Source of the DNA: an uncultured bacterium
Lineage (GTDB): Bacteria; Patescibacteriota; Microgenomatia; Levybacterales; UBA12049
DNA length: 64,000 nucleotides
Assembly (NCBI GenBank): GCA_963826535.1
Contig: CAWGXL010000011.1
Location: 448,809 to 512,808 of the forward strand
Direction of reading: 5' to 3'
The notes beneath the pieces are model-generated. The model saw only the letters and a program-made list of their open reading frames with translations, searched no databases and was not told the DNA's origin. Positions 4,185 through 53,829 of this stretch are shown here, piece by piece; the stretch's first letter is position 1; every line of letters begins with the position of its first letter. The translations under genes were made by a program, and so were the position numbers.

Positions 4185-4835
4185 ATGAAACTAATAGTGG
4201 GACTCGGCAATCCGGGGGAGAAGTATAAGAATACCCGGCATAATCTGGGTTTTAAGACTGTAAATCGATTCATGCAGGATTTTGAGACTGTGCAAAAGAC
4301 TGAATGGACGAAGAGCGTGAAGTTGAAAAGCAATATTGTGGATCTTGACTGGCAGCCGAAGACAGGACCTATGGAACATGTAATCCTTGCAAAACCATCG
4401 ACGTATATGAATAATTCCGGTATGGCGGTTCAACTTATTTCGGCATACTATAAAATTAATCCCGGGGATATTTGGATTGTGTATGATGAGTTGGATCTGC
4501 CAATTGGCTCAATGCGAATCCGTTTAGGCGGAGCGGCTGCAGGACATCGCGGAGTGGAGTCAATTATTGAAAGTTTAGGGACTGACCGTTTTTGGAGGTT
4601 CCGGATGGGAATTGGAACTGAGCATCCTCATTCGGGACGAAGAGCACGGGAAGACGGGAAAGTGCATAAGAATAGTAAACAATTTTTAGGTGATGTTAAT
4701 GATTATGTCCTTAGTCCATTTGGTCAAGAGAATAATAATAAAGCCCGAGAGCTTATCAAGCATGCATCAGATGCCATTTCCGAAGCTTTGGAAAAGGGGC
4801 TCGAGAAGGCGATGAACCGGTATAATACGAAGTGA
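4185..4835 (+). CDS. pth: peptidyl-tRNA hydrolase with C-terminal extension
   Basis: GLGNPG..Y..TRHNLGF N-terminal signature of Pth. TGA stop. About 40 extra C-terminal residues. Confidence 0.85.
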   Translation: MKLIVGLGNPGEKYKNTRHNLGFKTVNRFMQDFETVQKTEWTKSVKLKSNIVDLDWQPKTGPMEHVILAKPSTYMNNSGMAVQLISAYYKINPGDIWIVYDELDLPIGSMRIRLGGAAAGHRGVESIIESLGTDRFWRFRMGIGTEHPHSGRRAREDGKVHKNSKQFLGDVNDYVLSPFGQENNNKARELIKHASDAISEALEKGLEKAMNRYNTK

Positions 4836-4837
4836 AG

Positions 4838-4922
4838 AATAATTTTCAATTTTTAATTTTCAATTATCAATCAAATCTAAATTTTCAATTTATAAATGTT
4901 TAAAACATTGAAAATTGAGTAA
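4838..4922. repeat. AT-rich palindromic spacer element (TTGAAAATT/AATTTTCAA units), family copy
   Basis: Strong similarity to 53322-53422 (shared aatttttaattttcaat..caaat..taatgtttaaa..acatt) and to 53792-53829. Confidence 0.55.
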
Positions 4923-5258
4923 TTGAAAATTTTAAATTGTAAATTGAAATTTTTTATGCAGTCTGTGAAGCAGGTCCTCAAGAAATTTGATCCAATTAAG
5001 GATAAGTATGTTTCGCGTGAGTTTCAAACGTTTGGGTTGTATTTGTCGGAGCAATTAGATGATTATAAGCATAGAAGTCTTTATATAAAACTCTCAAAGA
5101 CGGTGCATAGGTCTATTTTGGAGAAGGCATTGTCATTCGTAGCAGATAGTAAAGCTGATAGTAAAGGAGCGTTATTTATGTGGAAGTTGAAAGAGCTACG
5201 GAAAAATTCAAAATCCAAAATTATCACTAGGATCCCTGTGGGGACAAATCACAAATAA
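4923..5258 (+). CDS. hypothetical protein (111 aa) bracketed by AT-rich palindromic elements
   Basis: ORF only. Both flanks are copies of the spacer element family. Confidence 0.35.
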   Translation: MKILNCKLKFFMQSVKQVLKKFDPIKDKYVSREFQTFGLYLSEQLDDYKHRSLYIKLSKTVHRSILEKALSFVADSKADSKGALFMWKLKELRKNSKSKIITRIPVGTNHK

Positions 5259-5359
5259 ATTCAAATATCAAAATTCTAAATTCAAAAAGTTTTGGATTTA
5301 ATTATTTGAATTTTGATATTATTTGGAATTTGGTGCTTTGAATTTGTAATTTAATTTCT
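5259..5359. repeat. AT-rich palindromic element, IVS-type copy
   Basis: Shares ttttgatatt..ttggaatttggtgctttgaatttg with the 23S IVS (24040-24100) and with 37110-37160. Confidence 0.6.
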
Positions 5360-6124: not shown

Positions 6125-6200
6125 AGGAAAAGGATTATAGCAGTTGAGGTATAAATCTTCAAGCCTAGCTATTATTTTTTCACCTTTAGCAAAAATAATT

Positions 6201-6226
6201 TGTCATTCCCCTGGACAGGGGAATCT
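6201..6226. repeat. REP-like hairpin variant TTGTCATTCCCCTG-GA-CAGGGGAATC
   Basis: Perfect 9-bp stem. Shares the GTCATTCCC arm with the 6288-6314 hairpin and lies in inverted orientation about 60 bp from it. Confidence 0.5.
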
Positions 6227-6287
6227 AGAAGATATAAATAAATATTCCTTAATAGAGGATAAATGGAAAAAATTTATTTTACCTGCT

Positions 6288-6314
6288 GGATTCCCGCGTT
6301 CGCGGGAATGACAA
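6288..6314. repeat. hairpin repeat GGATTCCCGCG-TTC-GCGGGAATGACAA (family copy 1)
   Basis: Near-identical copies at 22201-22227 and 45966-45992. Confidence 0.6.
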
Positions 6315-9439: not shown

Positions 9440-9630
9440 AGTAAATCCGAAGCACGAAATCCGAAATACGAAACAATATCAAATGACCAAAATACAAAAC
9501 GTTTTGGACATTTGGTATTTGAAGATTAGCCCCGCAAGGGGATCAAGAAATTTGTTTCGAATTTCTCCCGCAATCGTAGATACGGGATCCCGCTATTTTC
9601 ATAGTCGGGAGATATTCGAATTTCGGATTT
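9440..9630. repeat. AT-rich palindromic element copy in the trxA-trxB spacer
   Basis: cgaagcac..atatcaaa and caaaacgttttgg palindrome core shared with the 23S IVS start (23955-23975) and with 37095-37117. Confidence 0.45.
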
Positions 9631-21048: not shown

Positions 21049-21960
21049 CTAAATCTTCCAACCAAGTTCTTTTTTAATTTCATTTACGGTTATTATATAT
21101 TGCTCTTTCGTTAACTGATTATTTAAAATACAATATTTTTTATTGTTCAATCCTACACACCCGAAGCAGTCAGAGCAGTTTTTGATATTTGTTCCATAGT
21201 AACAATTTGTACAAAACTCACTATATTGTAAAAATGCACAATCGTATAAAGAAGGTCCTGAATGCACAAGTTCATAACACCTTTCACCAAGAACTCCCGT
21301 AAGGTATCCTTTTTTGCCGGAGTTAGCGATATCCCAACAATTCTTTGTGGCAGTACCAACATACATATATCCTGAATTTTCACAATATTGACTGTTAAAT
21401 GACCAATAACAATTCTTTGAATTATATATATAGTTTCCGTAAGCACTGTTCTCGCTATTGATTTGTTGACTGGCAGGATGCGGTGTCTGTAGTTTAATCT
21501 CAAACAATTGCTCCAGAATCTTTTCCGGCATCTCTTTTTTCAGTTCCCGGACTCTTTTAATGTAATCTTCTTTTGTATATTGAATATTCAAAATGCAGTA
21601 TTTTTTATGAGTTAAAGCAACACAACCAAAGCAATCAGTACAATTGTTTAGAAAGGCTGAGAAGTGACAAGCAGTACAACTATTACAATCCATTAAATAC
21701 GAGCAACTGTTACATTTGTTTGAGTCTATAGATTGATAACACTTTTCAGATTCTATTACCAAAATACAATCTACCAGTTTATTTCCCCAACCGATAGTAC
21801 TATACATACTATCTTCTAATGCAACTGAGTCGAAGCAGTAGTAGCAATTCTTGCTTCTGATAGTATTATCTACATATTCGCAATCTATAGTATAAGGAGA
21901 AAAAACTGCAGGTACAGGAATAGATTTTTTCAAGAGCTCATATTTTTCAAGAAAGGTCAT
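21049..21960 (-). CDS. Cys-rich CxxC-repeat protein, paralog 5 (dispersed copy)
   Basis: MTFLEKYELLKKSIPVPAV ... KELGWKI. Start moved to the conserved M. Confidence 0.65.
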   Translation of the reverse strand: MTFLEKYELLKKSIPVPAVFSPYTIDCEYVDNTIRSKNCYYCFDSVALEDSMYSTIGWGNKLVDCILVIESEKCYQSIDSNKCNSCSYLMDCNSCTACHFSAFLNNCTDCFGCVALTHKKYCILNIQYTKEDYIKRVRELKKEMPEKILEQLFEIKLQTPHPASQQINSENSAYGNYIYNSKNCYWSFNSQYCENSGYMYVGTATKNCWDIANSGKKGYLTGVLGERCYELVHSGPSLYDCAFLQYSEFCTNCYYGTNIKNCSDCFGCVGLNNKKYCILNNQLTKEQYIITVNEIKKELGWKI

Positions 21961-22200
21961 CTTTTTTATTTCGTTTAATCTACGCACAGTTTAACATAGG
22001 CGTTTATGTAGTCAAGATTCAGTTGTACATTATACATGAATTGGGTCTATTGACAGGTTTGAGGAGCGTATGATAATATAATTCCACGATTAAACAAAAG
22101 AGTCGTCTATGATAATGTTTGCAACTAACCTTTTAATTTCTAGTTATTCCGCAGATATTTAACGTCTTCTTTTGGTTTAATTTCATCTCATAAAATATAG

Positions 22201-22227
22201 ATTCCCGCCTTCGTGGGAATGACAATT
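22201..22227. repeat. hairpin repeat ATTCCCGCC-TTC-GTGGGAATGACAA (family copy 2)
   Basis: Matches 6288-6314 and 45966-45992. Confidence 0.55.
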
Positions 22228-22267
22228 GGAAGAAGAACTTTTAAAATCGGATATTCGCCCTTTACTG

Positions 22268-22307
22268 AGAACGTTAAACGTTTCTTTCGAGGAACGTCAA
22301 ACGTTTC
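22268..22307 (+). promoter_or_regulatory. two tandem near-palindromic 16-bp sites GAACGTTAAACGTTTC / GAACGTCAAACGTTTC upstream of tRNA-Ala/23S
   Basis: Direct repeat of palindromic AACGTT/AAACGTTT cores spaced 24 bp apart, immediately 5' of the tRNA. Confidence 0.3.
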
Positions 22308-22311
22308 ATTC

Positions 22312-22384
22312 GGGCCGGTAGCTTAGCTGGTAGAGCGTCGCGTTTGCATCGCGAAGGTCGAGAGTTCGAATCTCTTCCGGTCCA
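22312..22384 (+). tRNA. tRNA-Ala(TGC)
   Basis: Hand-folded cloverleaf. Acceptor GGGCCGG/CCGGTCC with G3:U70. Anticodon loop TTTGCAT. TTCGAAT T-loop. No encoded CCA. Confidence 0.85.
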
Positions 22385-22386
22385 CT

Positions 22387-22418
22387 AGCTTAGCTATTAG
22401 CTGTCAGCTATCAGCTTT
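22387..22418. repeat. ATTAGCT(N)TCAGC motif copy (tagctattagctgtcagctatcagc)
   Basis: Same motif at 27175-27200 and 42063-42097. Confidence 0.45.
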
Positions 22419-23191
22419 TGGATTTATGATTTTTTTGTCTGAAAGCAGAAAGCTAAGAGCTTAAAGCAAATTTTGCTTCGCAGTTTGAAGCAAGCCCCCT
22501 AGTTAGAGGGGGTTTTCTTCAAGCGTTGTGAGGCATGTCTTTTTACCCAAGGGTATGAGACAGGGTTTTTTGATTCTTGACTCCGATTTAAACGGAGTTG
22601 ACAGAACGAAAGGACTTAAAGCTTATCAATTGAGGTTCTTTGACAAGTGAAGAGAAGATCCCGCGTTTTGCTATCTGGCAAAATACGGGATTGTGGAAAT
22701 GTAAATATTTATTAATGCCAACAATGGATGCCTAGGAGATTCTGGCCGAGGAAGGACGCAGACGGCGGCGATACTCGTCGGGGAGGTGCCATCAACCTCT
22801 GATCCGGCGGTTTCCGAATGGAGCAATCCCTCCATCGCAAGATGGAGACCCTAGCGTAAAAATGGTTCGCAAGAATCATATAGCATTAGGGTGGGAACGG
22901 CGTGAACTGAAACATCTTAGTAACGCCAGGAAAAGACATCATATGAGATTCCCTTAGTAGCGGCGAGCGAAAGGGGAACAGCCTAAACTCCGATTTATCG
23001 GAGGGTTGCAGGGCAGACGATATTTGAGTGTTGCGAATAGCAGAAAGATCCGGAATGATCTTCCAAAGAAAGTGAAAGGCCTGTATGCGAAATTCAAAAC
23101 ACCGATAGTTTGTTCCTAAGTACCATGGAGCACGATTTAAACTCTGTGGGAATCCGGGTCGACCACGATCCAAGGCTAAATACCAGAATCT

Positions 23192-23230
<39 letters not shown>

Positions 23231-23544
23231 CACCCCGGAAGGGGGATGAAATAGAACTGAAATTGTTGGCTAACAAGCAGACAGAGGCCTTCGGCGAAAG
23301 CTCAGGCTAATGTCGTGCCTATTGAAGAATGAGCCGGTGAGTTTTTGATTGCTGCATGTTTAACCAATTTTACATTGGGAAGACGAAGTGAAAGCGAGCC
23401 CTAATTGGGCTACCAAAGTAGCAGTCATTAAACCCGAAACCGGGTGAGCTAACCTTGAGCAGGGTGAATCCCGACTAAAGTCGGGAGGAGGCCCGAACTC
23501 GTGAATGTAGCAATATTCTGAGATGACTTGAGGTTAGGGGCAAT

Positions 23545-23576
<32 letters not shown>

Positions 23577-23810
23577 CCCGAAATATATTAAGGTATAGCG
23601 CTTGGTAATTACAGCAGGGGGTAGAGCACTGAATGGTTCGCGGCGGCGCAAGCTGTCGTAACCAATCAAACTCCGAATACCTGTCTTGTGTATCCAAGTA
23701 GTCAGTCTTGTCGGGCTAAGCTGATGAGATTAAAGGGAAACAACCCAGACTCTCGATTAAGGCCTCGAAATAAAGGCTAAGTTTTAAAGGAAGTCAAATT
23801 CCAGAGACAT

Positions 23811-23841
<31 letters not shown>

Positions 23842-23924
23842 TAAAGATAGCGTAACAGCTCACTGGCGGATGGGATTTGGCGCCGAAAATGTAACGAGGA
23901 TTAAGCCTTTTGCCGAAATCGGAG

Positions 23925-24112
23925 ACTCTTGTCCGGAGGACAAGGAATATCAAAATACGAAGCACAGGATTAAATTCAAAATCCAAAATTACAAATTCCA
24001 AATAATATCAAAATTCAAATAATAAAATTCAAAACATTTAGAATTTTGATATTTGGATTTATTTAGGATTTGGTGCTTTGATATTTGAATTTCTCGTCCT
24101 TTGGATGAGTTT
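23925..24112 (+). other. intervening sequence (IVS) hairpin in the 23S helix-45 region, ORF-less
   Basis: An AT-rich inverted repeat of about 150 nt replaces the helix between GCCGAAATC.. and ..GGTAGGGGAGCG (E. coli helix 45 position). Sequence-related to intergenic elements at 5259-5359 and 37060-37168. Confidence 0.6.
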
Positions 24113-24860
24113 GGTAGGGGAGCGTCTTAAGTGCAGTGAAGTCGAATCGTAAGGTTTGGTGGAGCGGTTAGAAGTGAGAATGCCGGCATGAGTAGCGTAA
24201 TCCGCCTGAGAACGGCGGACACCGAAAGCACAAGGTTTCCTCCGCAATGTAAGTCAGCGGAGGGTAAGTCGGACCTAAGGGTATTCCTCGTTAAAGGGGA
24301 TTAGCCCGATGGACAAGTCGTTAATATTCGACTACAGGATGTGTGTATTATAAGGGGGTGTCGAAGGTGGAAGAATTGAGCGGGCCGCAAGGCTGCCGTC
24401 TAAGCAGTAAGATAGGGATAATTGGCAAATCTGTTATTCTGGTTAATTAAGCTGCGAATGAAAGCTGCGTGTAAAAACGGAGCGATTTGATCTCTTTCAG
24501 CTTCCAAGAAACGCCTCATTATCCAAATCGTAAGATTTGGAAAACACATGTTTTTCCGTACCGCAAACCGACACAGGTGTGCAGGTCGAGAAGACTAAGG
24601 TGATCGGAAGATGGATGATTCAGGAACTCGGCAAAAAAGCTAGGCGTAACCTATGGGAGATGCCTTGCCCCGCTATGCGGGGCTGCAACAAAAGTTTACT
24701 TAGCGACTGTTTATCTAAAACACAGGTCCCTGCAAAGCCGAAAGGCAACGTATAGGGGCTGACACCTGCCCAGTGCCGGTAAGTCAATGATGCTGAGTGA
24801 TGTCGCCGCAAGGCGACTGAGCTTGGTATCAAAGCTCCGGTGAACGGCAGCAGTAACTAT

Positions 24861-25575
24861 GAATACAGTTTGTAGTTGTAAAAGTCGACTAAATGCTGGA
24901 ATACCCGGTTGTATATGTTGATACTTTGGTCTATTATAAATAGAATATGCCAGGTAACAATTCAACATTGAGCGTCAATGAGACGCACCGGACAATCAGC
25001 AGGAAAGACTTGAGCCGAGAAGAACTAGGATTTTTCCTAGCAGGATTTGTTGAAGGAGAAGGGAGTTTTAATGTTTCATTACGACGAAAATCAGACTATC
25101 AAGTAGGATGGCAAGTCGTTATGAGCTTTAATGTTTCTCAAAAAGATCCGACTTTGCTTTTTCAATTAAAAGAGCAATTAGGATGCGGGATAATTAAAGT
25201 ACGAAAGATTGATAAACTCTATTCATTTGATGTAACAAATCCTAAGGATATAATCCAAAGAGTTATTCCATATTTTCAAAAATATCCAGTTCTTTCTGTT
25301 TCTAAACAAAGAAACTTTTTTTTATTTTGTGCAATAGCATATTTAATGGAGAAAGGTGAACATAGAAATTTGATAGGACTTCGGAAAATCCTTGAACTTC
25401 GGGAGATAATTAACGAAGGAAAAGGACGAAAACGAAAATATGAAATAGCAGATGTTTTTCTTGCTTAAGAATCCTCAGAGACTATACGTCGACCCCCGAT
25501 TAAATCGGGGATGATATAGTCCGACCTCATGGGCGACCATGAGACTCTGTAATCAATCAGAGCTTGTAACAATGT
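24861..25575 (+). mobile_element. group I intron at 23S GTAACTAT site (E. coli about 1917) encoding a homing endonuclease
   Basis: Exon sequence stops after gtaactat (24860) and conserved exon text resumes later. Contains the LAGLIDADG ORF. Confidence 0.7.
24947..25468 (+). CDS. LAGLIDADG homing endonuclease (single-motif type)
   Basis: LAGFVEGEGSF motif. 173 aa. Located within the 23S intron. Confidence 0.8.
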   Translation: MPGNNSTLSVNETHRTISRKDLSREELGFFLAGFVEGEGSFNVSLRRKSDYQVGWQVVMSFNVSQKDPTLLFQLKEQLGCGIIKVRKIDKLYSFDVTNPKDIIQRVIPYFQKYPVLSVSKQRNFFLFCAIAYLMEKGEHRNLIGLRKILELREIINEGKGRKRKYEIADVFLA

Positions 25576-25590
25576 GAACTGTTCTAAGGT
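25576..25590 (+). other. putative 15-nt 23S micro-exon AACTGTTCTAAGGTA between two introns
   Basis: Matches E. coli 23S AACGGTCCTAAGGTA (13/15). Flanked by intron-like sequence on both sides. Confidence 0.4.
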
Positions 25591-25842
25591 AACCAACTTC
25601 GTTGCCCTAGGAGTCAGTGTTTTAGTAATCCAACTATTTGCTGGAAAGACTCAGAATCCGACAATACCTGCAGAGGTAATAATTTGTTCGGTGGAGTTGA
25701 TCAGCAGGGAAGATCCCGATTAAATCGGGAAACCCTCAGAGACTATACGTTGGACCCCGATAAAATCGGGGAAGATATAGTCCGAACTCTATAGCGATAT
25801 AGAGAAATATAGATTACAAGGGTCTATAGATTAACATATTGA
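25591..25842 (+). mobile_element. second ORF-less group I intron (about position 1931), 3' region homologous to the first intron
   Basis: A 57-nt block CCTCAGAGACTATACGT..CCCGAT(T/A)AAATCGGGGA.GATATAGTCCGA.CTC occurs at 25472-25528 and 25733-25790. Exon resumes at GCGAAGTTCCTTGTCGGG. Confidence 0.45.
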
Positions 25843-26314
25843 GCGAAGTTCCTTGTCGGGCAAGTTCCGACCCGCACGAAAGGTAGAACGACTGAGTAAC
25901 TGTCTTAATCATCTATCCGGCGAAATTGAGATGGCTGTGAAGACGCGGCCTAGGTATACATGGACAAAAAGACCCCGGGAGCTTTACTGTAGCTTGGCAT
26001 TTGCAAGCTCGTTTTAATTGTTTAGAATAGGAGGGAGACTTCGGTCAACAGTGAAATACCTCTCTTTGAAATGAGCGAGCATCACTTCTAGCCGCATAAA
26101 AATACGGCAGAGGGACATTGTCTGGTGGGCAGTTTTACTGGGGAGGTAGACTCCTACAACGCAACGGAGTCGTGCAATGGTTGGCTAATCTTGAATGGAA
26201 ATCAAGATGATAGCATAAAGGCAAAAGCCAGCTTGACTGCGAGACCCACAAGTCGAGCAGGTACGAAAGTAGGCCTTAGTGATCCTCCGATGCTTGGTGG
26301 CAAGCACGGAGCTT

Positions 26315-26347
<33 letters not shown>

Positions 26348-26390
26348 GATCGCATCCAAGCGTCCACAGCGACGATGCGGTTTGGCACCT

Positions 26391-26728
26391 TAAGTAACAT
26401 TGGGGCGCCTATAGAGCAATCTGTAAGTCTGGTTATTCAATAACGCATTTAGAGAGTGCGGTGAATAAAAATACTAGTCAAAATCGGTGAATACCATTGA
26501 TATGAACAATTAATGGTTAATACCGAGGTTCTGTAAAGCAGAATGATCTTTATGATACTGCTGGCAGCACCGTATCGACTTTTATGTTCAGTTAATATGG
26601 GCATAAAGAGAAGGGGCTTTTGTTCCCGATTTAACGGGGCAAAAAATTATAGTCCTTCTAAAACACTAGCTCCTTTAGCAATAGAGGATGAAGGTATAGT
26701 CAACGCGTTTGGTAACAAACGAATAGAG
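26391..26728 (+). mobile_element. ORF-less intron at 23S position about 2449 (between GGCACCT and CGATGTCGGCTCATCACATCC)
   Basis: A 338-nt non-rRNA insertion between two perfectly conserved exon blocks. Confidence 0.55.
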
Positions 26729-26789
26729 CGATGTCGGCTCATCACATCCTGGGGGTGGAGAAGCTCCCAAGGGTCCGGCTGTTCGCCGG

Positions 26790-26820
<31 letters not shown>

Positions 26821-26967
26821 GCGTAAGCCAGTTCGGTCTCTATCCTGTATACACGTTTGAGATTTGAGGAGATTTGATCCTAGTACGAGAGGACTGGATT
26901 GAGGGAATCCCTGGTGTGCCAGTTGTTCCGATATTATCGGGCATCGCTGGGTAGCTAGATTCCCATC

Positions 26968-27000
<33 letters not shown>

Positions 27001-27174
27001 GTCTCCAAGATTAGATCTCGATCCCCGATTTATCGGGGGAAAGACCCTGGGAGACTACCAGGTTGATAGGCGGGCGGTGGAAGCTTCGTAAGGAGTTAAG
27101 CTTACCCGTACTAATGGTCGAGGAGTATTTTTTTTCCTATTCTCTTCACTTTTCAAGGAACTTGAATTAGCTTT

Positions 27175-27200
27175 CAGCTGTCAGCAATTAGATATATTGA
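27175..27200. repeat. ATTAGCTTTCAGCTGTCAGC motif copy between 23S and 5S
   Basis: See 22387-22418 and 42063-42097. Confidence 0.45.
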
Positions 27201-27213
27201 AAAGAGAAATTTT

Positions 27214-27331
27214 CTGGTGATTTGAGCGATGTGGCACCACCTCTTCCCATTCCGAACAGAGAAGTGAAACGCATCAGCGCCTACGATACTAAGCACGATA
27301 GGTTGCATGGGAAAATGGGTCATCGCCAGGA
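27214..27331 (+). rRNA. rrf: 5S rRNA
   Basis: TCTGGTGA..CCCATTCCGAACAGAGAAGTGAAAC..CATCGCCAGGA conserved 5S blocks. Confidence 0.8.
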
Positions 27332-27412
27332 GATTTCTCTTTTTAATTAAAACCCTGTACTGTGGATACCAGATTAAAAGCCTAGTAGTTATGAGATTTG
27401 GTAACGATGGCT

Positions 27413-33394: not shown

Positions 33395-33437
33395 TAGGGT
33401 CTTTGCATTTGCGATGTGCTTGCTGACCGGAATGTTT

Positions 33438-34368
33438 CCGTAAATATCCGACACTTTAGTTTAGCTGGTAAGCGGCGGTTTCATTCCTAAACTAATATGC
33501 GGTCTATGATAATGATATCTTTGAAGAAATGCTTCAATAAGGCTTTTTGCTTCTAAAAGTTCTGATTTTCTATACTTGTTCCACCCCAGGCATTCTTTTC
33601 TTACTGTTTTGTTAAAGCTTTCAATGAAAGATTGTTCATTTTTCTTGTAAGGTCTTGAAATACGAAATCTATCTGTGTAAGTATAGACTTTTTCTGCAAA
33701 TTTGTCTTTAAACTCCGGCCCGCCATCTGCCTGTATTAAATCGCTATGCCCATTGAAGCGTCTTCTCATACAGGTATCCAGGAAAATAACACCATCATTA
33801 CTGGTTAGGGATGGGCGAAGGACAACATCTGCTTCTCTGGAAAAGATATCAACTGCTGTAAAGGCAAAGAGTTCTCCAAAGTCAATTGTATCCATTTGAA
33901 TTACTTCCCGAGGTTTTACCGCTTTTGGTACCGGCCCACGTTTTATGTTATTGCCTCGTCTCTTCCGAAGAACGTACTTCTCTTTTAATATCTCATAAAT
34001 CTTAGGAATTGAGATAGAAACGGCGTGTTCTTTTTTGAGAAAGTATTGTATTTTATCTCCGCAACAATCCATCTCACGCTCTCTAATCTGCCAGACCCAC
34101 CTTTTTAGAATTGCATTCACTTGCCGTTTAGGACGGTCTCCTTTCTTAGCCACAAGATAGTAGTCTAGGAATCCCATAAGCCCTTGTGGATTATTGAGAA
34201 TACCACAGATCCATAAATGAACAGTTTCCCGATGAATGCCAAGCTGCTTGGCAATATGAGTCTTTGGCATCCCTTGTTCAAACAATTCCCAGGCGAGAGA
34301 AACTTTCGTTATTTGTTGCATATTCATAGTATATCTTTTCTCTGCCGCTTACTGTCGGATTTCTACGG
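33438..34368 (-). mobile_element. IS481-like insertion sequence (single-ORF HTH + DDE/rve transposase) with imperfect terminal inverted repeats
   Basis: Left end ccgtaaatatccgacac...ggtaagcgg versus right end reverse complement ccgtagaaatccgacagtaagcgg. Boundaries approximate. Confidence 0.5.
33461..34327 (-). CDS. DDE transposase/integrase (rve core) with N-terminal HTH
   Basis: HIAKQLGIHRETVHLWI helix-turn-helix. Core QMDTIDF...ADGGPEF...ESFNKTVRKE (D, D, E spacing typical of the retroviral-integrase superfamily). Confidence 0.7.
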   Translation of the reverse strand: MNMQQITKVSLAWELFEQGMPKTHIAKQLGIHRETVHLWICGILNNPQGLMGFLDYYLVAKKGDRPKRQVNAILKRWVWQIREREMDCCGDKIQYFLKKEHAVSISIPKIYEILKEKYVLRKRRGNNIKRGPVPKAVKPREVIQMDTIDFGELFAFTAVDIFSREADVVLRPSLTSNDGVIFLDTCMRRRFNGHSDLIQADGGPEFKDKFAEKVYTYTDRFRISRPYKKNEQSFIESFNKTVRKECLGWNKYRKSELLEAKSLIEAFLQRYHYHRPHISLGMKPPLTS

Positions 34369-34448
34369 AGAATAATCCGCTGACTTGCAGGGGGAGGGGG
34401 AGGGTGGTATACTTAGTTTATCTTTCTAAGAAAGGCTTATGATGAGCA

Positions 34449-35537
34449 ATGAAAATAAAACTTCAAGTAAATAAACCTGCGGGCGCGATGGCGCGACTTC
34501 TAGCATCGCATAAAGATTCGTTTATTTCACTAAAAAAAGGAGAGTCAGTTAAAGGGAAAATTACTAAGTTGACAGCATCTGAGATATTGGTTGATGTTGG
34601 CGCGAAGACAGAGGCGGTCGTCCTTGAGAAGGATAAGGCTATTTTGCATACGCTTCTTTCGGTATTTAAGAGTGGAGAAACAGTGGAAGTGCTTGTTCTA
34701 ACTCCCGAATCGGAAACGGGGCAGCCAATTGTTTCTTTGAGGCGGTATTTGGGTAATATTGCCTGGAAGAAGCTAGAGAAACTCATTGAAAGCCGCGAGC
34801 CGATCGAGGTTACGGTGAGTGATATAGGCAAAGCCGGCTACATTGTATCAACATCTTTTGGTATTTCAGGATTTTTGCCTCAATCGCATGTATCTTTTAC
34901 AGGAAGCCAAGCTATATCTTTTGGAGATACTCTTTCTGTGACAGTGCTTGAATTGAATCGGGAAGAGCGCAAAATCATTTTTTCACAGAAACCGTCTTTT
35001 ACAGACGAAGATTTTACGCAACTTATTGCAAAGTTTAAACCAGAACAGAAGGTTAAGGTTCACGTTACTAATGTTGCCTCTTTTGGTATGTTTGTTTCTT
35101 TACCGGTTGACGGCAGCACCATTCCCCTTGAGGGGTTTATACATATATCAGAGGCTTCTTGGGAAAGACAAGCGGAGTTAGGTAATTTGTTTACTACCGG
35201 ACAGCAGATTGAGGCGGTTATTCTCAAATTTGATAAGGATGCTAAGAAAGTGCAATTGTCTATTAAACGACTAACTAAAGATCCATTTGACTCGGTAATG
35301 GCAAAATATCCTATTGATAAGAAGATTACCGGTACTGTGGCAAAGGTCGATGAAGGAGGAATTGGCGTCGATATAGGTGAAGGAGTTGAGGGATTTATAA
35401 GACGTGAGAAGATTCCTCCGACAGTTACTTATGCTGTTGGACAGAAGCTTACTGTTTTGGTATCAGAGTACGATAAAAAGCGAAAAAGAATTTTTGTTGC
35501 GCCAGTTCTTCTTGAGAAACCGATTGGATATAGGTAG
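34449..35537 (+). CDS. rpsA: 30S ribosomal protein S1, short 4-domain form
   Basis: Four S1 (OB-fold) repeats, e.g. GESVKGKITKLTASEILVDVG, KVKVHVTNVASFGMFVSL, KITGTVAKVDEGGIGVDIGEGVEGFI. Confidence 0.7.
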   Translation: MKIKLQVNKPAGAMARLLASHKDSFISLKKGESVKGKITKLTASEILVDVGAKTEAVVLEKDKAILHTLLSVFKSGETVEVLVLTPESETGQPIVSLRRYLGNIAWKKLEKLIESREPIEVTVSDIGKAGYIVSTSFGISGFLPQSHVSFTGSQAISFGDTLSVTVLELNREERKIIFSQKPSFTDEDFTQLIAKFKPEQKVKVHVTNVASFGMFVSLPVDGSTIPLEGFIHISEASWERQAELGNLFTTGQQIEAVILKFDKDAKKVQLSIKRLTKDPFDSVMAKYPIDKKITGTVAKVDEGGIGVDIGEGVEGFIRREKIPPTVTYAVGQKLTVLVSEYDKKRKRIFVAPVLLEKPIGYR

Positions 35538-35658
35538 TATGTATCATGTAGTACGTATTATGTATACACAATTTCTCACGCATACTACATAATACATTCT
35601 ACTTACTACAGTTTCTGTTCAGCTTCATTTTTTTTCTGCCTAAGCGTATAATAAGATT

Positions 35659-37074
35659 ATGCCAAAGAATAAAACCGTAATAAATTTTGTATGCCAGGAG
35701 TGCGGTTATGATAGTCCTTCCTGGCTTGGTAAATGTCCAGAATGCGGAAGTTGGAACTCTCTCAAGGAGTTCAAAGTTCAAAGTTCAAAGTTCAAAGTTG
35801 ACCAAGGAGGTATTAGTAAGGGGCAGTCGGCAAAACCTCAAAGATTAAGAGAAATTGTGTATGAAGAAAAGCTGAGGATTCAAACTGAATATTCTGAGTT
35901 GAATACTGTTTTAGGTGGAGGAATTGTGAGGGGTTCTGTTACTCTTATGGCAGGCGACCCCGGAGTAGGTAAGTCGACACTTTTGCTTCAGTTGTGTTTG
36001 TCGCTCGCCAAGCAGGGGAAGAAAGTGCTTTATGTGTCGGGCGAGGAATCTGAGGAACAAATTAAGATGCGGGCTGAGCGGATTATGGCCAACAGCAAAG
36101 GCCGAATGGAGAAAAGAAATAATAAGTTGGATGAAAATTTGTATTTGGTATCGCTAACAGATTCGGATGCAATAGTGGAAGTAATTATTAAGGCAAAGCC
36201 TGATTTAGTGATTATTGATTCGATACAGACGATTGAGTCACAAAATGTATCAGGATTGTCTGGTTCGGTTGCACAAGTTCGCTATGGAGCATTGCAGTTT
36301 GTGCGCTGTGCAAAGCAGAATTCTATACCAATTATAATTGTAGGGCACGTAACGAAGGAAGGGATGGTTGCCGGGCCGATGATTTTGTCACACATGGTAG
36401 ATACGGTACTTTTCCTTGAAGGAGAAAGATTTACTGAGACAAGAATTTTGAGGTCGCTTAAAAACCGATTTGGTCCGGTTGACGAAGTTGGGATATTTCT
36501 TATGACCGATTCCGGAATGAATGAGGCAACTAATCCGGAGCAACTTTTTCTAAATTCCAATACCGCGTCAAATGCGGCTACGCCAGGAAGCGTTCTTGTT
36601 GTGACTTTAGAGGGGTCGAGAGCTTTTCTGGTTGAGATACAGGCACTTGTTGTCAGGTCAGGACTGCCAATGCCCCGTAGGGTGGTTTCAGGATGTGATC
36701 CTCGACGGGTTGAGCTCTTATTGGCGGTGCTGCAAAAGCATTTACGACTTCCATTGGACACACTGGATGTTTTTGTTAATATTGCCGGGGGATTAAGACT
36801 TTCTGATCCGGGCGCGGATTTAGGTGTATGTTTGGCCGTATTTTCAAGTTTTTCAAATGTTTCACTTAATGGGGTTGTTGGAATTGCGGAGGTTGGATTA
36901 CTAGGGGAATTGAGGGTGATTCCCGGACTTGAAAAGAGAATTCGCGAAGCGGGAAAACTGGGATTAAAAAAAATAATATCGGCAAAAACACATAAGACAC
37001 TGAGAGAAGTAATAGAATCATTAAACAAACCAGAGATTAAAAATTCAAAATTCAAAGCATCAAATTCCAAATAA
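35659..37074 (+). CDS. radA: DNA repair protein RadA/Sms
   Basis: N-terminal C4 zinc finger CQECG..CPECGSW, Walker A GDPGVGKSTLLLQ, KNRFG motif, C-terminal Lon-like domain. Contains an (AGTTCAA)4 tract. Confidence 0.85.
   Translation: MPKNKTVINFVCQECGYDSPSWLGKCPECGSWNSLKEFKVQSSKFKVDQGGISKGQSAKPQRLREIVYEEKLRIQTEYSELNTVLGGGIVRGSVTLMAGDPGVGKSTLLLQLCLSLAKQGKKVLYVSGEESEEQIKMRAERIMANSKGRMEKRNNKLDENLYLVSLTDSDAIVEVIIKAKPDLVIIDSIQTIESQNVSGLSGSVAQVRYGALQFVRCAKQNSIPIIIVGHVTKEGMVAGPMILSHMVDTVLFLEGERFTETRILRSLKNRFGPVDEVGIFLMTDSGMNEATNPEQLFLNSNTASNAATPGSVLVVTLEGSRAFLVEIQALVVRSGLPMPRRVVSGCDPRRVELLLAVLQKHLRLPLDTLDVFVNIAGGLRLSDPGADLGVCLAVFSSFSNVSLNGVVGIAEVGLLGELRVIPGLEKRIREAGKLGLKKIISAKTHKTLREVIESLNKPEIKNSKFKASNSK
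35768..35795 (+). repeat. (AGTTCAA)x4 heptanucleotide tandem repeat inside radA, encoding FKVQSSKFKV
   Basis: Read directly from the sequence. Same AGTTCAAAG unit as in the intergenic spacers at 44385, 48350 and 53340. Confidence 0.8.
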
Positions 37075-37168
37075 TATCAAAATACAAATAATAAAATCCA
37101 AAACGTGTTTTGATATTTGAAATTTGATATTTGAATTTATTTGGAATTTGTAATTTTGGATTTTAGAT
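37060..37168. repeat. AT-rich palindromic element, IVS-type copy (radA-yacL spacer)
   Basis: ccaaataatatcaaaatacaaataataaaatccaaaac / gttttgatatttgaaatttgatatttgaatttatttgg inverted repeat. Near-identical left arm in the 23S IVS. Confidence 0.6.
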
Positions 37169-37177
37169 TTGACTAAT

Positions 37178-44367: not shown

Positions 44368-44473
44368 CAAAGTAAGTTAAAAGTTTAAAGTGCAAAGTTC
44401 AAAATTATAGATTAAAAGTTTAAAAAATTAAATTTAACTTTGTATTTTGAACTTTGAATTTTTAAGTTAGCTT
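44368..44473. repeat. AT-rich palindromic spacer (caaagttcaaaat...attttgaactttg) between two tRNA-Ala genes
   Basis: Inverted repeat of AGTTCAAA units. Same unit family as the spacers at 48340-48417 and 53322-53422. Confidence 0.5.
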
Positions 44474-48257: not shown

Positions 48258-48417
48258 GGATATCTAATAACTTTAACAATTTTTTCTATATATTGTCAAG
48301 TTAGAAAAATCTTGAGCCTAAGGGGCGGGAGGTAGCAAATTAGTTCAAAGATCAAAGTTAAAAGTTGCAGATAAGAGATCAAAGTTTGTTTTTGCCTTTT
48401 AAAGTTGCGATACTTGA
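48258..48417. repeat. AT-rich spacer with AGTTCAAAG units downstream of the four-helix-bundle gene
   Basis: agttcaaagatcaaagttaaaagttgc...agatcaaagtttg. Confidence 0.4.
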
Positions 48418-48750
48418 TCAGACTATCTTTGCAAGCTCTTCTCTTTCTTTTAATAAAGTATTAATTTCTGTGATAAGTTCTCTATCCAAATCTCTTGCTA
48501 ATGCCAACCAGAATTTTGTCTCATTGGCACTCTTAAGAGCATGATTGAGATAGTTTATAAAGTCTTTTTTACTTGACGCTGCCTGTGCTTCTATGATATT
48601 TGCGCCAATTGAAGTTACTGCTCTGAGTAATTGATCAGATATTACCCGAGCAGATCTTTTTTGAGGAAACTTATCCATCAATTTAAGTACTTGACGAGAG
48701 TGTTGAAAAGCTCTGTGTATAAGTTGTTTTCTAAATTCGTGATTATTCAT
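48418..48750 (-). CDS. four-helix-bundle protein (23S rRNA IVS protein / DGR Avd family)
   Basis: 110 aa. SIGANIIEAQAASSKKDFINYLNHALKSANETKFWLALARDL matches the family signature GANIAEG..R.S.KDF..FL.IA.GS..E..Y.L.LA.DL. Confidence 0.7.
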   Translation of the reverse strand: MNNHEFRKQLIHRAFQHSRQVLKLMDKFPQKRSARVISDQLLRAVTSIGANIIEAQAASSKKDFINYLNHALKSANETKFWLALARDLDRELITEINTLLKEREELAKIV

Positions 48751-48800
48751 AATTTTACGCTTTTAACTTTAACTTTGCATTTTGCACTTTGGATTTTGAA
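48751..48800. repeat. AT-rich spacer (ttttaactttaactttgcattttgcactttggattttgaac) between giant gene 1 and the 4HB gene
   Basis: Same TTTGAA/CAAAG unit family. Confidence 0.4.
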
Positions 48801-53321: not shown

Positions 53322-53422
53322 ATTAGTTCAAAGTTCAAAGTATAAAATAATTTTCAATTCGAAATTTTTAATTTTCAATCAAATATTAATGTTTAAATAT
53401 TAAAATTTAAAAACATTTATAA
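53322..53422. repeat. AT-rich palindromic spacer element between giant gene 1 and 4HB gene 2
   Basis: Homologous to 4838-4922. Contains agttcaaagttcaaag. Confidence 0.55.
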
Positions 53423-53791
53423 TTATAATGTATTACTTGCAATTTTAGAAAAAATTAAGGTAAGTTCGTGTGCTTCCTGCCACAATATTCTATATTCTTC
53501 TTTTCCTTCATCTGTTGCTTTTGCTAAAATTCGGAGCCAGTATTTTGTTTCTTTTGATTCTTTTTTACAGATAAAAATTTTATTTTTAAAATCTTTTTTG
53601 CTACTTGCACCATTGGCCTCACAGTAATTTGCTCCCATACTGGTACCTGATCGCACTAGTTGGCCAATAATGGGTCTGGTAACGTCATTTTTAGGCGCTT
53701 TTTTGCAAAGCTCTATAATCTTTTCACTAAACAATGCTGTTCTTTCTTCTAAATCATACTTTCCGCTTTGTTTATTTGTAATTTTATTCAT
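53423..53791 (-). CDS. four-helix-bundle protein (23S rRNA IVS protein / Avd family), second copy
   Basis: 122 aa. SGTSMGANYCEANGASSKKDFKNKIFICKKESKETKYWLRILAKA carries the same signature. Confidence 0.65.
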   Translation of the reverse strand: MNKITNKQSGKYDLEERTALFSEKIIELCKKAPKNDVTRPIIGQLVRSGTSMGANYCEANGASSKKDFKNKIFICKKESKETKYWLRILAKATDEGKEEYRILWQEAHELTLIFSKIASNTL

Positions 53792-53829
53792 TGTGATTTA
53801 ATTGAAAATTTCAAATTGAAAATTGTAAA
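53792..53829. repeat. AT-rich spacer (ttgaaaatttcaaattgaaaattgtaaatt) between giant gene 2 stop and the 4HB gene 2 start
   Basis: Similar to 4896-4922. Confidence 0.45.

Follow-up and report, generated by a model that had tools for sequence, protein, structure and literature searches.

Introduction

Where does the extra sequence that interrupts helix 45 of a bacterial 23S rRNA come from, and to what is it related? Fragmented 23S rRNA and intervening sequences (IVSs) have been known since 1990, and the structure of the PF05635 protein that IVSs often encode, known as "23S rRNA intervening sequence protein" (IVP), has been solved, while I know of no function for it. A 2016 study described IVS "functionality and origin ... 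unclear" (PMC4990558). In this article, I discuss one helix 45 IVS, found in a 64-kb window (the whole stretch of DNA that was analysed), that can be traced to hairpins in mRNA spacers of the same genome, to other rRNA helix tips and to cassettes bearing an IVP gene, and with such a case the origin of an IVS becomes experimentally addressable. The explanation that I favour, and that I hold to be probable though far from assured, is that this IVS is an ORF-less member of a transcribed family of heptad-hairpin cassettes, which would spread at the DNA level and presumably be removed from RNA by RNase III.

An intervening sequence at the tip of helix 45

The 23S rRNA gene occupies 22701-27134 of the forward strand (4434 nt; Rfam RF02541, 2055 bits, model positions 1-2925, a complete bacterial LSU rRNA), and a map of its insertions against E. 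coli rrlB shows that it hosts intron-type insertions as well as the one in helix 45. The latter adds ~170 bases at the helix tip (23924-24111) between Rfam model positions 1218 and 1219, in the helix preceding the conserved GGUAGGGGAGCG, which is helix 45, and alignment to rrlB places the site at E. coli nt ~1160-1181. In a Levybacteria MAG (L001) whose 23S is 82-84% identical, blastn finds exactly 23925-24112 of the window absent and a native helix 45 of 17 nt at the site; the initial annotation, which proposed an insertion of about 150 nt at 23925-24112, had thereby delimited precisely this gap. The location at a helix 25/45 tip inside 23S, the extended double-stranded stem that replaces the native tip, and the sporadic occurrence documented by the empty site in L001 all fit the classical IVS type, and this assignment is supported. 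A self-splicing intron core was sought in the helix 45 region (23600-24500), where Rfam returned no intron match, the sole Rfam intron match in the 23S gene lying at 25581-25804; a group I intron was rejected, there being no Intron_gpI match at helix 45.

The region 23915-24125 folds as a single long imperfect hairpin with a minimum free energy (MFE) of -64.2 kcal/mol, against -36.9 +/- 4.2 kcal/mol for its shuffles (z -6.6; 0/200 as stable), which bears out the long imperfect inverted repeat previously read from the letters. All of its parts lie on the forward strand. Outermost is the extended helix 45 (23924-24111), defined by the cmscan alignment, the MFE fold and the absence in L001, in which GACTC (23924-23928) pairs with GAGTT (24107-24111) and the IVS lies between. 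Inside it the fold pairs a GC-richer 5' clamp, CTTGTCCGGAGGACAAGG (23928-23945), with the GC-richer 3' clamp CTCGTCCTTTGGATGAG (24093-24109), including several G-U pairs, and both clamps are further supported by the sense stability test described below; the 5' clamp resembles, when compared by eye, that of a helix 25 copy in another 23S gene (L038). An additional, IVS-specific segment of the left arm, AATATCAAAATACGAAGCACAGGATT (23946-23971), has its MFE partner at 24066-24092 and falls outside the nhmmer family match. The core (23972-24092) is the family member proper, a type-A heptad hairpin identified by the family profile (E 2.6e-21), alignment A1 and an exact 21-mer at 23993-24013. With a loop of ~10 nt and no ORF, and hence no PF05635 gene, the IVS represents an ORF-less form.

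A dispersed family of heptad hairpins

Relatives of the IVS are found elsewhere in the same window. In its left arm, the 38 nt ccaaataatatc...caaaac (23998-24035) differ from 37067-37104 at 2 positions, so that the near identity to the radA spacer claimed initially holds, at coordinates that were off by 2 (37069-37106 had been given); the right arm, for which homology to 5300-5350 had been proposed, is indeed 81% identical to a copy at 5204-5352 over the aligned right-arm columns. When the whole IVS is searched against the window, blastn aligns it to 5245-5355 (83% over 111 nt, E 5e-25) and to 37004-37170 (74% over 168 nt, E 1e-24), and the family nhmmer profile matches the three window copies at E 2.6e-21 to 2.5e-24. 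The copy at 37041-37170 (forward strand, nhmmer E 2.5e-24) fills the spacer between radA and a PIN/TRAM gene, both identified by Pfam, and its left arm contains the last 11 codons of radA plus the stop codon. The copy at 5204-5352 (reverse strand, nhmmer E 4.7e-23) lies in the spacer between a small ORF and an acylphosphatase gene and bears a nested GC-rich insert of 21 nt. A diverged copy between the thioredoxin and thioredoxin reductase genes (9443-9583, forward strand; nhmmer E 1e-9, together with sequence, fold and Pfam), in which the right arm is broken by GC-rich mini-hairpins, brings the number of type-A copies in the 64 kb to four. The IVS is closest to copies of its own genome (83.5% and 81.8% identity), compared with ~65% to rRNA-borne copies of other organisms.

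Could this be chance, with AT-rich low-complexity sequence resembling itself? The window is AT-rich (GC about 0.40) and the arms are repetitive, with weak alignments common in both orientations, yet the 21-mer AAATTCCAAATAATATCAAAA is exact in three window copies where dinucleotide shuffles give an expectation of 0.02, the nhmmer E-values reach 1e-21 to 1e-24, and the same 21-mer recurs within the same hairpin at 30 independent genome loci, so that a resemblance by chance is already refuted and its probability negligible. Judged by these comparisons, it is supported that the helix 45 IVS represents a copy of a dispersed family of AT-rich palindromes, members of which are likewise found in spacers between protein genes, and both the interspersed family and the similarity beyond AT-richness stand as initially annotated.

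The family consists of discrete hairpins of ~130 nt with sharp borders and unrelated flanks, the arms of which repeat every 7 nt, as (AAATNNC)n in the left arm and as the mirror (GNNATTT)n in the right, such that AA or TT is invariant at each seventh base while the intervening positions vary (invariant columns of alignment A1: A8-9, 15-16, 22-23 and 29-31; T74-75, 81-82 and 88-89). This heptad periodicity appears as a lag-7 autocorrelation peak of 0.15-0.38 in the arms, and 26/26 copies fold, with 34-54 pairs each. The family was detected with an nhmmer profile (alignment A1) instead of a covariance model because covariation was no better than in a column shuffle: 71.9% of cells pair in mirror register, against 71.6 +/- 0.7 after shuffling (146/500 as high), and RNAalifold found no consensus structure among the 26 copies.

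The exact 21-mer occurs at 37 GTDB loci, and reading of the 250-nt contexts places 30 of them in the same hairpin. These hairpin loci span CPR and non-CPR phyla, the non-CPR carriers including, according to the titles of their MAG records, a delta proteobacterium (contigs of 100-816 kb), Nitrospiraceae, Omnitrophota and Dehalococcoidales. The 21-mer had no match in viral contigs, and a phage vector is therefore unsupported; Rfam had no RNA family for the hairpin, either in the window at the gathering threshold or in six element-bearing loci at E <= 1. The elements stand out as AT islands, with a GC of 0.17-0.35 where that of their loci is 0.38-0.57, most of them tightly intercistronic with gaps of -34 to +56 nt between a stop and the next start, and nearly all copies whose surroundings were examined sit where transcription is expected, at rRNA helix tips, in short spacers between co-directional genes or in a tRNA spacer. 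One locus (L013) has three copies within 2.1 kb. Ribosomal RNA is also a recurrent home, as a metagenome scan that looked for GGTAGGGGAGC following the family right arm yielded 4 loci belonging to 23S rRNA genes, and the 23S of L038 carries four copies (E. coli nt ~280, ~545, ~1170 and ~1714-1770) and that of L041 copies at ~538 and ~1185.

Cassettes bearing an IVP gene

Some copies of the family carry a gene for the PF05635 four-helix bundle, and Pfam assigned the loop ORFs of L010, L021, L027, L030, L034 and L036 to PF05635; the ORF-less helix 45 IVS thus belongs to a family that also exists as IVP-bearing cassettes. The arms fall into sequence types, which I have named A to D, each paired with its own IVP clade. 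A type-A IVP, P0134, is encoded on a contig of 894,453 bp, equal in length to the one that bears the window's own proteins, and in five genomes that were reached via protein homology alone, the arm type matched the IVP clade.

The window holds two IVP cassettes, with arms of types other than A, and each of these arm types (B and C) also has a gene-less hairpin nearby in the window. The IVP1 cassette (53300-53850, reverse strand) has type-B arms around a PF05635 gene (ORF 53423-53791; Pfam E 1.5e-15; TIGR02436), the arm duplex reaching -26.9 against -12.5 +/- 3.1 kcal/mol, and type-B arms adjoin IVP1-like genes in 3 other genomes. Its ORF-less counterpart, a hairpin with the TTTTCAATT motif in the spacer between pth and a small ORF (4833-4960, no strand assigned), is 74% identical to the IVP1 arms over 141 nt. 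The IVP2 cassette (48320-48815, reverse strand) has type-C arms, which form a duplex, around a second PF05635 gene (ORF 48418-48750; Pfam E 2.3e-22; TIGR02436), the nearest solved chain being PDB 2RLD (E 1.7e-14), and an ORF-less type-C hairpin with the CAAAGTT motif lies between tRNA-Ala(CGC) and tRNA-Ala(GGC) (44381-44468, no strand assigned; sharing 87% identity with the IVP2 arms across 38 nt). When the type-B and type-C hairpins were used as single-sequence nhmmer queries, they matched only themselves, and it is pairwise blastn, together with k-mer counts and comparison across genomes, that accordingly supports the relationships drawn for B and C. The cross-phylum family, its strict 7-nt architecture and the two IVP cassettes in the window are points that were absent from the initial annotation.

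It is tempting to go further and regard PF05635 proteins and heptad arms as a kind of selfish cassette that has so far escaped description and from which bacterial rRNA IVSs in general derive, a generalisation that I consider doubtful. The mechanism that would go with it is speculative to the same degree, taken as a whole: a pentameric IVP would read the AA-every-7-nt code of its own arms, through periodic binding like that of TRAP or HutP, and would promote the maintenance of the cassette or its copying into transcribed hairpin tips, removal by RNase III would keep the insertions harmless, and the ORF-less hairpins would be non-autonomous derivatives. Such a reading of its own arms by an IVP would account for the tracking of IVP clade by arm type and for arms that are conserved without covariation.

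Turnover and mobility

The family had also been called active and MITE-like, and both words deserve a closer look. The copies at 5204-5352 and 37041-37170 are 89% identical to each other, and 74% and 84% identical to the same-position copies in relatives; copies cluster by genome and not by locus, which indicates turnover. The radA-PIN spacer has a type-A copy in the window and, at the same position, in L043, while in L045 the copy is of type B and in L044 a stub of 36 nt is present, and the L018 spacer syntenic to 5204-5352 has a copy in the opposite orientation. The genome-wise clustering, the same spacer with differing arm types and orientations, and the empty sites (helix 45 in L001 and the L018 site syntenic to 4833-4960, from which the hairpin is absent) lend indirect support to an active family. 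However, the positions of two window copies are conserved in the distant relatives L018 and L043, where flanking or neighbouring proteins are no more than 51-73% identical, and such sites agree equally well with mobility, with slow turnover or with a role in the host; likewise, an identical IVP protein in two genomic contexts, which would indicate recent movement, was not found among four proteins present on 12-24 contigs each, always in a single context. What stands of "active" is the turnover, recent transposition not having been seen directly.

As for a classical MITE, in which the hairpins would be non-autonomous derivatives of an insertion sequence moved in trans by a transposase, the small size (~130 nt, non-coding), the bounding inverted repeats, the dispersal of several copies within a genome, and borders that are sharp with flanks that are unrelated are all as expected. 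Yet no target-site duplication was seen at the flanks of ~20 copies in an alignment read by eye, though such a reading may overlook very short ones where the flanks are AT-rich, and neither a linked transposase nor a linked nuclease was seen. Nor does the window contain a cognate transposase-coding element with the same termini, its sole transposase (rve DDE, 33461-34327) having terminal repeats, TCCGTAAATATCCGACA, that are unrelated to the hairpin ends, on which ground it was rejected as mobilising partner. Moreover, the gene-bearing relatives encode PF05635 and not a transposase, and the entire element is palindromic in place of a unique core with short terminal repeats. I find a classical MITE very unlikely, and "MITE-like" holds for the short, palindromic, multi-copy form and fails for target-site duplication and transposase partner. 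A different view would make the hairpins a host cis-element, an intercistronic processing or stability signal or a protein-binding site under purifying selection and mainly vertical inheritance, with the rRNA copy as a by-product. The conserved sites just described speak for it, as do the conservation of the exact 21-mer across phyla, the tight packing of copies from stop codon to next start codon, and the invariance of AA/TT every 7 nt without covariation, which suggests sequence readout. It sits poorly, however, with the patchiness of the empty sites, with the differing arm types in the radA-PIN spacer and the inverted L018 copy, with grouping by genome, and with the status of the elements as AT islands in unrelated phyla whose genomes are GC-richer. 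Two copies were also scanned for sigma-70 promoters and intrinsic terminators, and inside the type-A elements nothing rose above shuffle expectation. I consider a host element unlikely, while taking it as partly compatible with the cassette explanation that I prefer, according to which copies would arise at the DNA level.

Fate of the hairpin in RNA

On the cassette explanation, the insertion would be tolerated because it is handled after transcription: the transcript is predicted to fold into a ~70 bp duplex, mostly of A-U and G-U pairs, that RNase III would cut out; in the case of 23S, two pieces of rRNA that remain associated would result. A near-continuous RNA duplex of ~70 bp is a generic, textbook substrate of RNase III, and excision of the helix 45 IVS would be plausible. 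The GC-richer clamp is present only on rRNA-borne copies, and it pairs well only in the rRNA sense (more stable in this sense in 8/8 rRNA-borne copies, p 0.008), which fits a role in excision. The AT-rich core folds no differently in sense and antisense (13/24, p 0.38), so that selection on an RNA stem is unsupported for the core. A sense-specific clamp would equally stabilise a hairpin that is retained in mature 23S as a surface extension of helix 45, leaving the 23S unfragmented, and the helix 45 tip does tolerate insertions, other 23S genes bear as many as four of these hairpins, at helix tips that vary, much like expansion segments, and a motif scan and Pfam on 35 ORFs found no RNase III gene in the window. 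Against retention, this cassette is also found in the spacers of mRNAs and tRNAs, in which a retained hairpin lacks a structural role, the duplex is of the kind that RNase III generically cuts, and every experimentally studied helix 45 IVS cited in PMC4990558 and PMC11270868 is removed by RNase III. Retention seems to me rather improbable, and I continue to favour excision.

Implications

A profile for this family enables annotators to recognise a common and so far unannotated CPR element that extends reading frames, as it does with the tail of RadA. PF05635 genes also occur inside cas and other operons (PMC3936711), and the present data suggest that these may be hitch-hiking cassettes and not functional partners of the operon. 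In addition, many contigs that bear an IVP gene are very short, so the element may break assemblies.

Comparison with known systems

Several known systems share one or another trait with these hairpins. TIGR arrays (TIGR-Tas) consist of two alternating repeats of 8-12 nt with 9-nt spacers in 36-nt units, beside a gene for the Nop-domain protein Tas (PMC12045711), whereas the period here is 7 nt and no Tas-like gene was present among the Pfam-scanned ORFs, and the comparison was dropped. REP/REPIN sequences offer a closer parallel, as dispersed extragenic palindromes served by a protein partner of their own, which is encoded in single copies, but REPs are 20-40 nt long and GC-rich, with GTAG/CGTC heads and a Y1 HUH transposase (RAYT), while the present elements combine AT-richness with heptad arms and are partnered by a four-helix bundle that is not known to be catalytically active; membership among REP/BIME was rejected on a length of 130 nt, a GC of 0.17-0.35 and an alignment free of GTAG/CGTC heads. 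Avd, the accessory protein of diversity-generating retroelements (DGRs), is related to PF05635, and pentamers of four-helix bundles are seen in its solved relatives. A DGR-like mechanism was nevertheless rejected, since neither a reverse transcriptase nor template or variable repeats lie near any cassette examined and since the heptad adenines are invariant, the opposite of the adenine-directed mutagenesis of DGRs.

Rickettsia palindromic elements (RPE), which Ogata et al. are said to have described in 2000, are reportedly palindromes of ~100-150 bp that may insert in frame into protein genes, and a likeness by description lies in the C-terminal tail of RadA that is encoded by the element and in the half element lying in frame inside radA of L043. 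To my knowledge, RPE are confined to one genus and have neither a heptad architecture nor an IVP partner. The Correia elements of Neisseria, a genus to which they are confined, have a unique core between terminal repeats of 26 bp, with a TA target duplication and promoter/IHF sites; I know of no report that places them in rRNA or gives them a PF05635 partner. They (also called NEMIS) resemble the family as inverted repeats of ~100-150 bp that are co-transcribed with adjacent genes and whose RNA hairpins are bound and either cleaved or protected by RNase III (PMC2649163).

The nearest systems are those of rRNA itself. The classical helix 45 IVSs of Salmonella, Coxiella burnetii and Leptospira occupy the same helix with a stem-loop that replaces the native tip and are sporadic among relatives, and those of Coxiella and Leptospira have an ORF of PF05635 (S23p), unlike the ORF-less copy here. 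The 5' arm of the Coxiella IVS has several tandem heptamers, upstream of the IVP ORF, and the first of them is where RNase III cuts (PMC4990558), tandem heptamers being a point of likeness to the arms here. The likeness is one of description, and what sets the present IVS apart is that its arms come from a family dispersed outside rRNA and across phyla, which is unreported for classical IVSs in the cited literature. In CPR 23S genes, Tsurumaki et al. (2024) report many short non-intron insertions at classical IVS sites, treated as uncharacterised and probably IVS-like, together with 22 IVP (PF05635) ORFs in rRNA insertions (PMC11270868). Inverted repeats, palindromes and hairpins are absent from that text by term search, and its passages on these insertions, unlike the present analysis, present no heptad architecture, extra-rRNA copies or link between ORF-less and IVP-bearing forms. 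The 23IS2 and 23IS4 insertions described there come from the same type of organism, lie in helices 25 and 45, measure <200 bp and have neither an ORF nor an intron core (PMC11270868), and the helix 45 IVS discussed here almost certainly belongs to this class of CPR short non-intron insertions.

A helix-45 insertion with relatives in the spacers

The window is AT-rich (GC about 0.40) and belongs to a bacterium of the candidate phyla radiation (CPR, Patescibacteria), with several proteins named Levyibacteriota among the nearest relatives of its RadA (70-78% identity). Rfam finds in it a complete bacterial 23S rRNA gene of 4434 nt on the forward strand (22701-27134), a 5S rRNA gene (27213-27331) and a tRNA-Ala gene at 22312. 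In a cmscan alignment of 23600-24500, all of the extra bases of this region fall between model positions 1218 and 1219, inside the hairpin (helix 45) that precedes the universally conserved GGUAGGGGAGCG, and alignment to E. coli rrlB with MAFFT places the site at E. coli nt ~1160-1181. The initial annotation had put the insertion at 23925-24112, and exactly this interval is missing from the 23S gene of L001, a Levybacteria metagenome-assembled genome whose gene is 82-84% identical, because blastn aligns window positions 22786-23925 and 24112-24860 to adjacent L001 stretches. The native helix 45 of L001 is GATTGCAGCAATGCAAT; that of the window spans GACTC (23924-23928) to GAGTT (24107-24111), a net insertion of ~170 nt. 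Described at the outset as a long imperfect inverted repeat, the inserted RNA indeed folds as one long imperfect hairpin (-64.2 kcal/mol, z -6.6 vs dinucleotide shuffles). By site, stem, sporadic distribution and lack of an intron core, which are all the criteria that sequence can address, the feature is an intervening sequence (IVS), and it is a member of the short non-intron insertions catalogued at CPR sites 23IS2 and 23IS4 (PMC11270868).

The central proposal was that this IVS is a copy of an interspersed, AT-rich palindromic family. Its left arm is nearly identical to the radA-yacL spacer, as claimed, with 2 mismatches in 38, but at 37067-37104, the coordinates first given being off by two. 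The homology proposed between its right arm and 5300-5350 is borne out by blastn within the window, which aligns the IVS with 5245-5355 (83% over 111 nt, E about 1e-24) and also with 37004-37170 (74% over 168 nt, E about 1e-24). Shared AT-richness does not account for this similarity, since all three window copies contain an identical 21-mer, AAATTCCAAATAATATCAAAA, for which chance would give 0.02 matches. Family members were aligned into a profile, which in the window returned type-A copies (types being classes of arm sequence) at 37041-37170 (E 2.5e-24) and, on the minus strand, 5204-5352 (E 4.7e-23), the type-A IVS core at 23972-24092 (E 2.6e-21) and a fourth copy, which has diverged, at 9443-9583 (E 1e-9). 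The core is 83.5% and 81.8% identical to copies in its own genome vs about 65% to rRNA-borne copies elsewhere. With these results the observation and its central claim stand, and I consider the accompanying interpretation largely right but incomplete.

The same 23S gene carries further insertions at 24861-25841 and 26391-26728: 716 nt after E. coli nt ~1917 with a LAGLIDADG_1 ORF (24947-25468), 251 nt after nt ~1931 that is a group I intron match in Rfam (25581-25804), and 338 nt after nt ~2500 that matched no Rfam family, has a 105-aa ORF (26543-26860) with no Pfam match, and is also present at the same site in L001 (343 nt). As 21049-22701 holds no 16S rRNA gene upstream of tRNA-Ala-23S-5S and the preceding gene is a minus-strand ORF, the rRNA genes appear to be unlinked; the 5S gene is bracketed by a 26-nt inverted repeat (27196-27221 / 27322-27347, 85% complementary), probably the 5S processing stem. 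Inverted repeats of other sequence lie at 35531-35610 (TAGGTAGTATGTATCATGTAGTA / TACTACATAATACATTCTACTTA), in the spacer of an S1-domain gene and radA, and at 6200-6314, the latter GC-rich at both ends (TTGTCATTCCCCTGGACAGGGGAATC ... GGATTCCCGCGTTCGCGGGAATGACAA); a similar GTCATTCCTGCGTAGGCAGGAATCC motif stands about 60 nt upstream of the element of another genome, L005, and this repeat looks like another dispersed palindrome family.

A heptad hairpin family spanning phyla

A scan for the 21-mer in GTDB genomes, one for each species, gave 37 loci. Judged by eye in 250-nt contexts, 30 of them hold it in the same structure, in which a short loop joins an A/C-rich left arm to a T/G-rich right one. 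Record titles name Levybacteria, Curtissbacteria, Saccharibacteria, Parcubacteria, Nealsonbacteria, Peribacteria and others within the CPR, and outside it Desulfobacteraceae, delta proteobacteria (contigs of 100-816 kb), Nitrospiraceae, Omnitrophota, Dehalococcoidales and Gammaproteobacteria assemblies. In the alignment the copies end sharply and their flanks are unrelated, and the elements are AT islands (GC 0.17-0.35 within loci of 0.38-0.57). No Rfam family matched the hairpin family.

When 26 ORF-less copies are aligned, AA is invariant in the left arm (columns 8-9, 15-16, 22-23, 29-31) and TT in the right (74-75, 81-82, 88-89). The spacing is strictly 7 nt and the bases in between vary; autocorrelation likewise peaks at lag 7. 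Every copy folds with 34-54 pairs, and in mirror register 71.9% of cells pair, falling to 57% and 54% with one-column slides. Covariation is absent from this alignment, because shuffling columns gives 71.6 +/- 0.7, in line with the observed pairing; RNAalifold finds no consensus structure in it, and the AT-rich core is no stabler in the transcribed sense than in antisense (13/24, p 0.38). It is the palindromic consensus that gives rise to the pairing. GC-rich mini-hairpins, several with a GGATCCC core, are nested in AT-rich arms in the window (5228-5248 and 9520-9620; AGGATCCCTGTGGGG, CGGGATCCCGC, GCCCCGCAAGGGG), in L054 and in L074 (CCCTCCGAATCGGAGGG), and may be a second layer of tiny insertions.

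The rRNA setting recurs. Metagenome contigs were scanned for a family right arm followed by GGTAGGGGAGC within 20-50 nt, and each of the four loci matched comes from a 23S rRNA gene whose helix 45 carries a family hairpin. A single 23S gene, that of L038, holds four copies (E. coli nt ~280, ~545 in helix 25, ~1170 in helix 45, and ~1714-1770), and L041 has copies at ~538 and ~1185. Copies in rRNA, and not those in spacers, are bracketed by a clamp of GC-richer segments: CTTGTCCGGAGGACAAGG ... CTCGTCCTTTGGATGAG in the window and CTTGTTCGCGGAACAAGG ... TCTCGCTCTGCGAGCGAG in helix 25 of L038, with TGTGCATGGCA common to two other L038 sites. In 8/8 cases the clamp is more stable when folded in the rRNA sense than in antisense, by 2.5-12.8 kcal/mol (p 0.008), with some tested segments containing a few native rRNA bases that would bias the result in the same direction; the whole window helix gives -63.1 (sense) and -51.2 (antisense). 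Because of this sense preference the clamp, but not the core, appears to be adapted at the RNA level to a place within rRNA.

The rRNA-borne copies of the window, L038, L041 and L039 score best against the profile in the same orientation relative to rRNA sense (8/8, clear in four and marginal in the rest), and spacer copies are found in either orientation with respect to their genes. The metagenomic 23S gene of L039 (= L040) has at least 10 insertions of 26-146 nt (E. coli nt ~544, 665, 923, 1105, 1163, 1354, 1376, 1700, 2199 and 2217), among which only the helix-45 one clearly matches the type-A profile.

Gene-bearing forms

At six 21-mer loci the arms stand 360-1000 nt apart around a loop ORF of 116-122 aa that matches PF05635, '23S_rRNA_IVP', a four-helix-bundle protein (IVP), at E 1e-13 to 1e-20. 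In this form the ORF replaces the inner left arm, with the ATG directly after ...CCAAATAAATCCAA and a complete right arm after the stop codon. A local HMM of the loop ORFs located two PF05635 genes (TIGR02436) on the minus strand of the window, IVP1 (53423-53791) and IVP2 (48418-48750), the latter nearest among solved chains to PDB 2RLD. Both lie between inverted AT-rich arms, of differing sequence type: those of IVP1 are type B (TTTTCAATT motif) and match the ORF-less hairpin at 4833-4960 (74% over 141 nt), and those of IVP2 are type C (CAAAGTT motif) and match the ORF-less hairpin at 44381-44468 (87% over 38 nt), between two tRNA-Ala genes. A type-A IVP, P0134, 88% identical to the L030 protein, is on a contig of 894,453 bp, the same length as the contig with the window's proteins, which makes it very probable that the source genome has a type-A cassette with a gene beyond the window.

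Among genomes reached via protein homology alone, arm type tracks protein clade: two type-A IVPs have type-A arms (in the contexts ruvA-IVP-ruvB and X-IVP-frr), and type-B arms go with three IVP1-like proteins, each from a different further context, k-mer counts being part of the comparison. The L028 IVP is flanked by a fourth type, TAATTCC/GAAATTA, also heptameric. In the window the IVP1 cassette sits between giant ORFs of 1506 aa, containing six Laminin_G_3 domains, and 3258 aa, both on the minus strand (48801-63606), in a region of clearly higher GC (0.49-0.52 vs about 0.40), and the IVP2 cassette between the 1506-aa ORF and a downstream TPR gene; L074 likewise has an IVP between a giant ORF and a TPR gene.

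Turnover, probably not by cut-and-paste transposition

The family had been called active and MITE-like. Several results speak for turnover: helix 45 is empty in L001, the 4833-4960 site is empty in syntenic L018, and the L018 spacer equivalent to 5204-5352 has a type-A copy in the opposite orientation. The radA-PIN spacer is occupied by type A in the window and L043, by type B in L045 and by a 36-nt stub in L044. Against recent activity, the 21-mer had no match in viral contigs. No target-site duplication was seen and no transposase partner emerged, which makes MITE-like the wrong label, and no second IVP context supports activity, four identical IVP proteins, on 12-24 contigs each, always having the same neighbours. 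The rve transposase of the window was considered as a partner and has unrelated ends. It belongs to an insertion sequence (33437-34369; rve, DDE integrase-core, transposase 33461-34327 on the minus strand; 17-nt terminal inverted repeats TCCGTAAATATCCGACA) that has a MaoC-like gene on one side and the S1-domain gene on the other. Also in favour of turnover, the window's two spacer copies share 89% identity, vs 74% and 84% to same-position copies in relatives. The data agree better with concerted evolution, or with copies being replaced repeatedly at preferred spacers, than with cut-and-paste transposition; membership in the MITE, REP, TIGR and intron families fails on their defining features.

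In the literature searched I found no description of an IVS as a member of a discrete, phyla-spanning family of heptad-structured hairpins, of such a family also in mRNA spacers, or of ORF-less and PF05635-bearing forms pairing by arm type. The broader pattern is worth pursuing, since rRNA intervening sequences would gain a concrete origin from it, and their enigmatic protein a role open to testing.

Transcribed settings and known systems

Most ORF-less copies fill the entire spacer of co-oriented genes (gaps of -34 to +56 nt), and IVP genes also lie between operon genes; an earlier survey listed 18 IVP genes inside cas operons, e.g., cmr3-IVP-cmr2 (PMC3936711). Copy 37041-37170 even encodes, in its left arm, the last 11 codons of radA and its stop codon (tail KNSKFKASNSK; region 36990-37074), with similar RadA tails in several relatives, and in L043 (2997-3097) half an element, the left arm without the right, lies in frame within radA (peptide QITNSKLQIPNNIQNSKSKIQNI; nhmmer 6e-9). 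Several RadA relatives have similar low-complexity inserts at this position, a variable linker. Since copies fill rRNA helix tips, spacers of co-oriented genes and one tRNA spacer, nearly all of those with examined surroundings are placed where they would be transcribed.

Removal or processing at the RNA level would be the simplest explanation for the tolerance of these hairpins, and for the window it is suggested by analogy: the studied IVSs cited in PMC4990558 and PMC11270868 are removed by RNase III in every case. The Coxiella IVS offers a striking parallel to the heptad arms, its 5' cut falling at the first heptamer in a tandem run of several that precede the IVP ORF (PMC4990558). The nearest functional analogue is the Correia elements, co-transcribed hairpins bound by RNase III (PMC2649163), and for in-frame coding insertions the nearest analogue is the Rickettsia palindromic elements.
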